A stretch of 64,000 nt of DNA from Candidatus Cloacimonadales bacterium (GTDB lineage: Bacteria; Cloacimonadota; Cloacimonadia; Cloacimonadales; DAONDQ01). The stretch spans positions 3,200,001 through 3,264,000 of the forward strand of contig OY759316.1 of the NCBI GenBank assembly GCA_963662275.1, read 5' to 3'. Made by a program: the position numbers. Positions 21,001-24,000 of this stretch are shown here, piece after piece. Position 1 is the first letter of the stretch. Each line of letters opens with the position of its first letter.

Positions 21001-24000
21001 GTTGTTTGTAGCTTTCAATATCTAACCAAGCCAACATCTGGATTTTTAATGAGTTTGATCGGTGGATTAGTCTTATTATTATCCGGAAAGCCCCGCTGGT
21101 ACCGGATTTTATTCTTCTGGGGATCAAGCTTAATCGCATTGCTCCTTTTAAGCATATTACTTAAGCCAAATTTCATTGTTTATTATTATAATGCATATCA
21201 TAATGTGATTGCGGGGAATAGTCATAGTTTAAGGATGCTGATTAATTCAATTATAAATGCAGTTTTGTTGAATATTGAGGTATTTGAATTATCGCTAATT
21301 ATTGCCACAGTATTTTGGTTATCGTACCTGATACGTAATCAAAAAGTACTTTCTCGGATTTGTTGGTGGGCAGGAATATCTTTGATCATGCTCATATATG
21401 GTGTGCAAGTAATGCATCATATGCGTGGTAAAATGGTATATTCAGCGTTTCTTATTATGACCATAATATTAATGTTCATGAGTTGGCTGCTTCAATATGT
21501 AAAACCCCATTACTGCAAATCATACATAGGTTTTGCATTAAAGCCATATTACCGCTATATACCACTATTTCTGTTGCTATATATTATCCCTTATATTGGC
21601 GCATTTGGTTCTGATAACTCACTTGACTGGGGAGCCAAGTTCTACAATACATCATTTATGGGCTTGATTGTTCTATTAATGCCCTTCCAAAGACAAAAAC
21701 TAATCAAAGCAGCATTGATCTGTTTTTCGTTTTATTTAATTACCATTGGTCTGTTTCAATACGTACAATTCCCCTATAGATCCAGCCCCCTTTATACTCA
21801 AACTGAAAAATATAAAGGCATAAAGTATAATCCAGAGAAATATGTGTTTCTAAAAAAAACTGAAGCTATTTTGGCTAAACACAGGTTTAATCGTAACCAA
21901 GGTATGATTGTGGCTTATCATGAGCCAGGACTTGTTTATTTAATGGGCACTTTCCATCCTGGTGGTATCCTTTGGTCGGAACCTTTTCAACGGGGGTATT
22001 TCGAGAATCTCAAAAGAAGCACGCTTACATATAAACCAGTAATATTTGCCTTTGGAAATGAGCCTGGCAAGGAGTTCCAAACCAGCTTTAAGCGAGCAAC
22101 TGGATTGGATTTTCAAAAGGACTACAGGATAATAGAAACATATAAATCTTATGATGGAATAACACCGGTATATATATATTTCCCTTACTCTTCGGAAATG
22201 CCTTTGCTTTGATTATTCCGTATCATACTCGCTTTTATCTTAAGATTGTTTGCTCACAGCGAATGACAAAAACCGGCGATTAAATCTAGTTTATGCCTAT
22301 AATGTCTGTTCTTCGTTTGCTTCAATCTTATTTATTGATGAGGGGTTTACCAAAAGGTAATACAACTCTGCCAGCCTGGTCATTAATGATATTCGCCAAC
22401 ATCATATACATGGCTGCCGCGGCACAGACAATTAACTCATAACCTGCAACAACATTCCATTTAGGATCACCGAAATGACCGATAACTAATAGCATGAAAC
22501 CAAGCAGAAGAAGGAAAATGGTTAGAGACATCGCAGTGTGTATTCTTAATGAAGCTAAAAACATCACAAAAGTATAGATCATCCAGGCAAAAAGGTACCA
22601 GCCAATATCAGTAGTACTTGCCTTATATACTTCGAAGTGATTCAGTAGAAATATTATTCCCAATCCAATCCAGAAACTGCCGTAAGATACAAAAGCACTG
22701 TATCCGAAATTATTGCCCATCTTCTGTTCCTGAAAACCAGCTATCATTTGCGCCAAGCCACCGTAGATCAAACCAACAGCAAGGACAGGACCAATTCCGC
22801 ATAAACCGATGTTATGAAACTGTAAAATCAGAGTTGTCAGGGAGAAACCTGCAAGACCAACGACTGCAGGATTGGCGTATTTTCTTTCTTCCACGTTGAG
22901 CTCCTTCATTATTTTTTTTAGCGACTATTGATCAGCATTTTCATCGTACGAACGGATTCAGCGAGACCACTGAAAACAGCACGTGAAATGATACTGTGAC
23001 CTATATTGTATTCTTCGATTATCTGTAATTGAACCAATTGAACGATATTCTGATAATTAATTCCATGCCCGGCAATCACACGCATATTGGCTGCACGTAT
23101 GACTTTGCAAGCTTTTTCAATGCGTTTCAGTTCTTCAGCAACTTCCTTTGCATTCTTCGCATTCGCATACCTGCCTGTATGAATTTCAACTGCATTTGCT
23201 TTATAGCGATCTGCCAGCTTAATCATATCAAGATCAGGCTCAATAAATACAGATACTTCAATCCCAGCAGCTTGCAGGTCTGCAATTACGTCTTCAAATC
23301 GCCGAGAAGAAATATCCAACCCACCTTCAGTAGTAATTTCTTCACGTTTTTCCGGAACTAAAGTAACAATATGAGGTATAAGATTTTTGGCGATTGTCAC
23401 CATTTCCGGTGTTGCTGCCATTTCCAGGTTCAAGCGAGTCTGAATAGTATCTTTCAGTATTTTGATATCTCTATATTGGATATGCCGACGGTCTTCTCGA
23501 AGATGAACTGTGATTTGGTCTGCCCCATTCTGCTCTGCAATGAATGCTGCATAAACAGGATCAGGCTCTATTCCTAATCTTGCCTGTCTAATTGTAGCTA
23601 TGTGATCTATATTGATACCCAATTCAGCCATATTGACTCCTCCATAAAAACTAACAGCCGTCCAGGGAACGGCTGTCAATTATGGTGCAGAAAGCGGGAC
23701 TTGAACCCGCACGCCCTTAACAGGCACAAGATCCTTAGTCTTGCGTGTCTGCCAATTCCACCACTTCTGCGCGAAAGTTTATTTCTTAACTGGAGCAGGT
23801 TTAGTAGTCTGCTTCAGTTCCTTGAATAGCTTGCTTTTTTGTTGATTGCTACTATTTCCGGTTAAATTCGAATGCTTCACTGTCAGAGCCAATATGATGC
23901 AGGAGCATAGAAATGCAGCACCAAAGATCTGAGTCCATTTTTTTAAAGCAGCGGAACCACCTGAACCACCCAGAACATTCTGAGCTGCTCCGCCAAGGTT

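Follow-up and report, generated by a model that had tools for sequence, protein, structure and literature searches.

In the Cloacimonadota, tRNA-Leu(GAG) has been replaced by tRNA-Leu(AAG), and the replacement is fixed across the phylum. We consider it likely that the single TadA of these bacteria converts A34 of this tRNA to inosine-34, a reading drawn from the sequence of the tRNA, of the enzyme and of their relatives. The tRNA-Leu(AAG) gene (88 nt, with a long variable arm and an encoded CCA end according to ARAGORN and an orthologue alignment) occupies positions 23683..23770 on the minus strand of the 64-kb stretch of DNA analysed here, hereafter the window, and is the sole tRNA that ARAGORN calls in it. 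Its anticodon loop (23732..23738, minus strand) reads C32 U33 A34 A35 G36 G37 A38, with A34 at window position 23736. Eight bases upstream lies secG (23779..24099, minus strand; NCBIfam TIGR00810 over its cut-off), a conserved anchor of the locus that was found upstream of the AAG gene in 46/46 Cloacimonadota loci examined. The downstream neighbour is pdxJ, encoding pyridoxine 5'-phosphate synthase (22918..23631, minus strand; we place its start at the ATG that opens the family match). It was absent beside the tRNA in 46 related loci examined and is not part of the tRNA/TadA system. No promoter-like signal above chance was detected at the locus, and the minimum-energy fold of the tRNA did not recover the cloverleaf (z -1.44), as is usual for tRNA.

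The genome to which the window belongs (G000) is a single contig, 99.97% complete, with 47 tRNA genes called by ARAGORN. Its leucine anticodons are TAA, CAA, TAG, CAG and AAG without GAG, as the initial annotation had stated. Two lowered-score 'Leu(gag)' calls were flagged as pseudogenes, lacked tRNA features and were rejected. tRNA-Leu(AAG) is the sole reader of CUU and CUC with G or A at position 34. The arginine anticodons are ACG, CCG, TCT and CCT, and Arg(ACG) is the only other A34 gene of the genome. CTC occurs 10,919 times and CTT 21,185 times in the 2,276 ORFs of at least 200 aa, the same ratio as in the counts given earlier (12,196 and 23,503).

Fixation was assessed using a pattern that spans the tRNA from the D-loop to the T-loop, accepts AAG or GAG and gave at most one reversed-pattern control match per genome. 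It matched 199 of 232 Cloacimonadota genomes (147/151 high-quality ones), and every one of the 208 matches was inspected: 204 are AAG genes, three are GAG genes and one is a non-tRNA. AAG genes are present in 198/232 genomes (146/151 high-quality ones), with all 17 families represented by one genome or more and over a GC range of about 31-57%, and the loop is CU-AAG-GA in all 204 of them. The claim of phylum-wide fixation therefore holds, also when the loss of GAG is judged with this longer pattern instead of a single arm sequence: still no native GAG gene was found. The three GAG genes (in G077, G196 and G209, two of which also carry AAG) sit on contigs of 4.6-7.9 kb without secG. The neighbouring protein on the G077 contig matches relatives at only 25-27% (in two of five relatives) and that on the G196 contig reaches at most 38% identity in five relatives, suggesting that the three contigs are mis-binned or mobile DNA. 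One might also suspect a sequencing error or an overlooked GAG gene, given that 3/232 genomes do hold a GAG gene and 33 have no match. The chance of such an artefact is negligible: it is refuted by 198 independent assemblies, the GAG contigs are short and have foreign or phage-like neighbours, and secG is likewise missing from the five high-quality genomes that have no AAG (0/5, versus 5/5 in related controls), so the locus is unassembled there. As the same pattern readily detects GAG in other lineages (63/81 Verrucomicrobiota, 34/61 Lactobacillales), the missing GAG of Cloacimonadota does not stem from the limited reach of a single arm sequence. UAG is retained in G000 and in the three relatives checked.

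How might CUC be read in such cells? The CUU/CUC tRNA linked to secG carries A34 instead of G34 throughout the phylum. According to our proposal, it would have arisen in place from a GAG gene, the homodimeric TadA would deaminate this A34 as it does that of tRNA-Arg(ACG), and the resulting tRNA-Leu(IAG) would then decode CUU, CUC (and CUA). The tRNA loop has converged on the loop of the arginine substrate (Y32, A38), leaving the adaptation visible on the tRNA side. We infer all three parts of this proposal, namely the in-place origin from a GAG gene, the activity of TadA and the editing of tRNA-Leu(AAG). With respect to TadA activity, G000 uses 5,092 CGA and 4,778 CGC codons and has no tRNA-Arg(UCG) or tRNA-Arg(GCG); Arg(ACG) is their only reader, so TadA must be active.

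The loops of the two A34 tRNAs of G000, CUAAGGA for leucine and CUACGGA for arginine, differ at position 35 only. CUAAGGA is the loop also found in Streptococcus and fits YUAMGRA, the editing motif of S. pyogenes TadA, an enzyme which fully edits tRNA-Leu(AAG) as well as tRNA-Arg(ACG) (PMC11472039, in part). In four other lineages, A38 accompanies AAG in 121/123 genomes versus 0/104 genomes with GAG, by a hand count in which related genomes are not independent. A38 is also present in 107/120 AAG matches from a wider collection in which at least 120 were listed. A38 could be selected for ribosomal tuning instead of TadA. All sequence-level features of the Lactobacillales tRNA-Leu(IAG) appear to be present in Cloacimonadota, and the swap most likely works in the same way. 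Studies of the E. coli enzyme add detail: an AAG loop carried by a foreign tRNA is edited by it to about 15%, and substitutions at 32, 37 or 38 stop this editing (PMC11066159, in part). At 37, the substitution that blocked editing introduced G, and both Cloacimonadota A34 tRNAs carry G37. E. coli TadA leaves S. pyogenes tRNA-Leu(AAG) unedited in vitro (PMC11472039, in part), so one would expect adaptation of the enzyme. No marker column was found, however: in an alignment of 165 TadA sequences, 54 of them from Cloacimonadota, AAG and GAG lineages are not told apart by any position. Of the four A34 tRNAs of O. oeni, only two are edited (as cited in PMC11066159).

A competing explanation is that A34 stays unmodified or is edited in part, that tRNA-Leu(AAG) is a good reader of CUU and a weak one of CUC, and that tRNA-Leu(UAG) with 5-hydroxy-U34 or unmodified U34 covers the rest. 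We regard this as quite unlikely. An unedited AAG tRNA does read some CUC, with a U:C ratio of 87:13 in E. coli (PMC11066159, in part), and a TrhP-like U34 hydroxylase that could widen UAG decoding is present (a TrhP-like U32 protein, 403.7 bits, under the cut-off of 534). However, ARAGORN finds G34, U34 and C34 genes in six other four-codon boxes of G000, and with a G34 tRNA kept in these six and C34 in all eight, the genome does not rely on four-way reading by U34; CmoB was not found in G000. The TadA-type loop is moreover invariant in the phylum.

Codon usage also argues against a weakly read CUC. The ratio C/(C+U) in the CUN box of G000 (39% GC) is 0.34, versus 0.26-0.42 in the other seven four-codon boxes. 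It amounts to 0.54 in 200 kb of a relative with 50% GC, and to 0.75 versus 0.67-0.81 in the other boxes in 200 kb of a relative with 57.5% GC; CUC outnumbers CUU by 1,604 to 545 in the GC-rich relative. CUC is not avoided and is used in the same way as the C-ending codons of other boxes, whether GC is 39%, 50% or 57.5%. Some 41 ribosomal-operon ORFs were compared, a few spurious ones among them: leucine codons do not move towards the one ending in C (ln odds -0.19, SE 0.22), whereas such a move is seen in five of six G34 boxes (+0.23 to +0.57; the exception is Gly, -0.05), and Arg is at +0.10; this weak comparison is blind to the difference between I34 and A34. YTAAGRA is depleted in coding DNA (ratio 0.84), which was considered as an editing signal and dropped, since the control motif YTAGGRA is equally or more depleted (0.79); the depletion is stronger on the antisense strand.

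RNA data were available as assembled contigs of four runs from four studies (4 of the 23 listed), which we compared with the orthologous locus of G004. Among the differences listed there is no A>G change at position 34, with 41 difference rows and 26 pieces lying beyond those listed. The X9 contig, which reaches from secG to just past the tRNA with 31 letters on each side of the site, reads A34, and five further contigs that overlap position 34 near their ends all read A. A>G changes that could not be placed number none in X5 and X9, one in X3 and ten in X1. These contigs drop minority variants and include no Arg(ACG) control. There is no change at G37 and hence no m1G37 signature, so the contigs are probably precursor or DNA; their A34 is compatible with I34 in the mature tRNA as well as with an unmodified A34. 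Precursor-level editing is not dominant in the runs examined. An arrangement well suited to read-based tests exists in families f16 and f17, where tRNA-Leu(AAG) and then tRNA-Arg(ACG) follow directly behind secG in 5/5 loci fetched (L076, L077, L079, L080 and L088 of genomes G210, G220, G228, G231 and G222); this tandem is an ideal internal control.

We turned to the enzyme itself. G000 has one TadA match, 149 aa long (contig 2091114-2091560, or to 2091563 with a wider end), which confirms the single TadA reported before. Its best PDB match is S. aureus TadA (2B3J, E 6e-37), and it scores 148.9 bits against the NCBIfam TadA model, just below the cut-off of 150. TadA was found in 211/232 Cloacimonadota genomes and in 149/151 high-quality ones; a few genomes have a second match. 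Three other deaminase-domain matches in G000 are a cytidine deaminase, a dCMP-deaminase-like protein and a 370-aa frame. We saw no sign of a second inactive deaminase subunit or of many A34 tRNAs in G000, with its one TadA match and two A34 tRNAs; the inventory of A34 tRNAs beyond Leu(AAG) was taken in this genome alone. Cloacimonadota TadA conserves the HAE and PCxxC motifs along with the residues equivalent to R94, D104, K106 and N123 of S. aureus TadA. R70 of the S. aureus enzyme contacts the backbone at G36/G37 (residue numbering from PMC3711424, in part), and its equivalent, the Arg of the W-R-L motif, is present in 107/111 non-Cloacimonadota TadA sequences and missing in 53/54 from Cloacimonadota, mostly through a one-residue deletion. 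The missing R70 contact would fit an unmodified A34, and the R70 position is also altered in the degenerate TadA of M. capricolum (PMC3711424, in part). Of the Mollicutes-type degeneration (R70, R94, D104), however, Cloacimonadota TadA has lost R70 only and has kept R94 and D104.

Taking the evidence from tRNA, codons and enzyme together, inosine-34 remains the preferred reading. A separate issue is where the gene came from. In Fermentibacterota, GAG and AAG genes share their body and the secG locus and differ at 34, 38, sometimes 32, and in the variable arm, which shows that switching between GAG and AAG took place in situ in that phylum. In E. coli the gene order is secG-leuU(GAG). An in-place origin is likewise suggested for Cloacimonadota by the shared secG locus. 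Alternatively, the tRNA could be edited but derive from a copy of tRNA-Leu(UAG) by U34A, or have taken over its arm, and have displaced the GAG gene at secG. Among 121 metagenome contig matches to the D and anticodon arm, 96 carry U34, 23 A34, two C34 and none G34, and the AAG body of Cloacimonadota shares 63/88 positions with a Fermentibacterota GAG gene versus 64/88 with its own UAG gene; no GAG-bearing Cloacimonadota is at hand for comparison. Still, the position at secG is that of the Fermentibacterota GAG gene, the AAG and GAG bodies of that phylum differ only at 32, 34, 38 and in the variable arm, and the UAG gene is still retained. We therefore hold descent from UAG to be unlikely; it concerns descent and not mechanism, and is compatible with I34.

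The initial annotation regarded such a swap as known only from some Firmicutes/Mollicutes. We searched 185,579 species genomes with a general AAG pattern and obtained at least 120 matches, all called Leu(AAG) by ARAGORN. The 80 named among the matches listed comprise 24 non-Lactobacillales Bacillota including Clostridia, 13 Lactobacillales, 13 Verrucomicrobiota, five Prochlorococcus and kin, four Actinomarina/Acidimicrobiia, four Alphaproteobacteria and three Cloacimonadota, two each of Fermentibacteria, Hydrogenedentota, Synergistota, Planctomycetota and the Myxococcota/Bradymonadia type, and four singles. Hence 43 of these 80 named matches (of at least 120 listed) lie outside Bacillota, and the view that a collection scan returns mostly Cloacimonadota did not survive, with 3/80. 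Part of the named matches is probably mis-binned, and single MAG matches (Bifidobacterium, Patescibacteria, Gammaproteobacteria) may be so. A MAG named 'Yoonia' (L121/G253) was not accepted as a record for that taxon: its TadA falls within Verrucomicrobiota, and the MAG is probably mis-binned. GAG was found once in 40 of the listed AAG genomes, whose completeness was not given. The Cloacimonadota-type tRNA body makes up 5/120 of the AAG matches listed; set against about 200 such genomes, this would, given an unbiased scan order, amount as a rough estimate to some thousands of AAG species (about 3%).

Four groups were sampled around an AAG-bearing genome, which is itself counted in its sample. 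They gave 33 AAG, 5 GAG and 3 without a match in 41 Fermentibacterota, 56 AAG, 2 GAG and 3 without in 61 Hydrogenedentota, 17 AAG, 63 GAG and 1 without in 81 Verrucomicrobiota including Akkermansia, and 17 AAG, 34 GAG and 10 without in 61 Lactobacillales. AAG and GAG were found together as tRNA-like matches in no genome of these four samples. Hydrogenedentota and Fermentibacterota are thus nearly as fixed as Cloacimonadota, and the uniqueness implied for the latter falls away. A quick tree of TadA, one short gene, used for a minimum change count only, requires eight changes of the AAG/GAG label, at least five of them forced by well-supported branches. The five Fermentibacterota GAG genomes (L337-L341; G272, G293, G275, G277 and G276) group with one AAG genome inside the phylum and possibly represent a reversion from AAG.

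A broader idea, which we put forward tentatively and at somewhat less than even confidence, is that a two-substrate TadA may be a common and repeatedly used bacterial state, with at least 5-8 switches between GAG and AAG, near-fixed in three small phyla and needing only a change of the loop (Y32-U-AAG-G-A38). If so, no shared enzyme change would be needed and the strict TadA of E. coli would be a special case, and Cloacimonadota, by deleting R70, would have taken a distinct natural path to looser specificity. In addition, 13 of the 120 AAG genes listed (of at least 120) keep a GAG-type loop, U32/G38 or U32/U38 (L096, L108, L110, L111, L116, L121, L124, L130, L142, L183, L184, L189 and L204). 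They are candidates for recent switches or for unmodified A34, and so offer the rival reading of an unedited A34 some support outside the phylum.

Comparison with known systems places the Cloacimonadota closest to Lactobacillales (S. pyogenes, S. mutans, O. oeni), where tRNA-Leu(IAG) likewise uses AAG for GAG and keeps UAG (PMC11472039 and PMC13249217, both in part), with the loop CU-AAG-GA, one TadA per genome and Arg(ACG) present. The differences are that Cloacimonadota are another phylum and fixed (198/199 matched genomes) whereas Lactobacillales are mixed (17 AAG and 34 GAG of 61), that they are not restricted to AT-rich genomes (about 31-57% GC), and that editing was measured there, whereas it is predicted here. 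Their TadA of 149 aa has neither the streptococcal C-terminal extension nor the R70-equivalent Arg. A shift of leucine codons from UUA to CUU/CUC has been reported for Lactobacillales. Relative to the standard pair of TadA and tRNA-Arg(ICG), the enzyme family is the same and the loop is identical except for position 35; leucine would be a second substrate with A35, with I34 needed for CUC and the A-ending codon covered by UAG. The unmodified A34 tRNAs of Mollicutes (Thr AGU, and Arg ACG without TadA; PMC3711424, in part) also lack a G34 partner, but occur in reduced, AT-rich genomes in which TadA is lost or degenerate, whereas in Cloacimonadota TadA is intact and the tRNA set of 47 genes is full. 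The eukaryotic tRNA-Leu(IAG) made by ADAT2/3 likewise has I34 for G34 in the CUN box, but ADAT2/3 is a heterodimer with eight substrates, and G000 has no second TadA paralogue and two A34 tRNAs only.

We found no published description of tRNA-Leu(AAG) in Cloacimonadota, Hydrogenedentota or Fermentibacterota, although taxon lists in the supplements or figures of two 2026 surveys may include Cloacimonadota. The term 'Cloacimon' is absent from the text of PMC13249217, a 2026 bioRxiv survey (10.64898/2026.05.15.725136), PMC8007984 and PMC6063277, and PMC13092985 mentions it once, for another tRNA. Excerpts of PMC13249217 (Katanski 2026) place AAG 'almost all' in Bacilli, add Mycoplasma and Prochlorococcus and state that it 'may be widespread', so that an occurrence beyond Firmicutes/Mollicutes had already been named. 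The recent surveys of cultured genomes (PMC13249217 and bioRxiv 10.64898/2026.05.15.725136, each in part) tie tRNA-Leu(AAG) to AT-rich genomes. The present data show fixation in a whole phylum, recurrence across phyla and GC contents, and a change that the tRNA loop displays but the enzyme does not; specialists may be surprised less by Cloacimonadota alone than by this recurrence. For the question of how a one-substrate TadA came to act on more tRNAs, the step that gave rise to eukaryotic ADAT2/3, a single bacterial case has been studied well. The sister groups with GAG and AAG in Fermentibacterota and Verrucomicrobiota provide independent replicates for studying leucine recoding and enzyme determinants. 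Editing of UAAG-type sites in mRNA would be predicted for digester bacteria and Akkermansia, and natural TadA variants could find use in base-editor work.

Several further observations concern the genes discussed above. I76Y is known as an evolved base-editor change. Tyr stands at the position of E. coli Ile76 in about 80% of the 54 Cloacimonadota TadA sequences, and also in an engineered TadA (PDB 8E2Q). Streptococcus-type TadA (L388, L389, L390) has Asn at the D104-equivalent in 6/6 sequences, and nearly all other groups differ. In G000, tRNA-Ser(CGA) comes within 3 bases after tadA (contig 2091114-2091922 region), with tRNA-Leu(CAG) on the opposite strand. Two tRNA-Leu(AAG) copies occur in G127 (L085), one on each side of secG, and in G101 (L086), in tandem. 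The GAG contig of G209 (L073, C104) is phage-like and has, beside tRNA-Leu(GAG), genes for a polynucleotide kinase/ligase and an isochorismatase-family protein; should it belong to a Cloacimonadota phage, the host would receive from it the anticodon that it is without. Finally, window positions 24414-28925 on the minus strand encode a secreted protein of 1,503 aa with a C-terminal T9SS/FlgD-type domain and a body otherwise without family.
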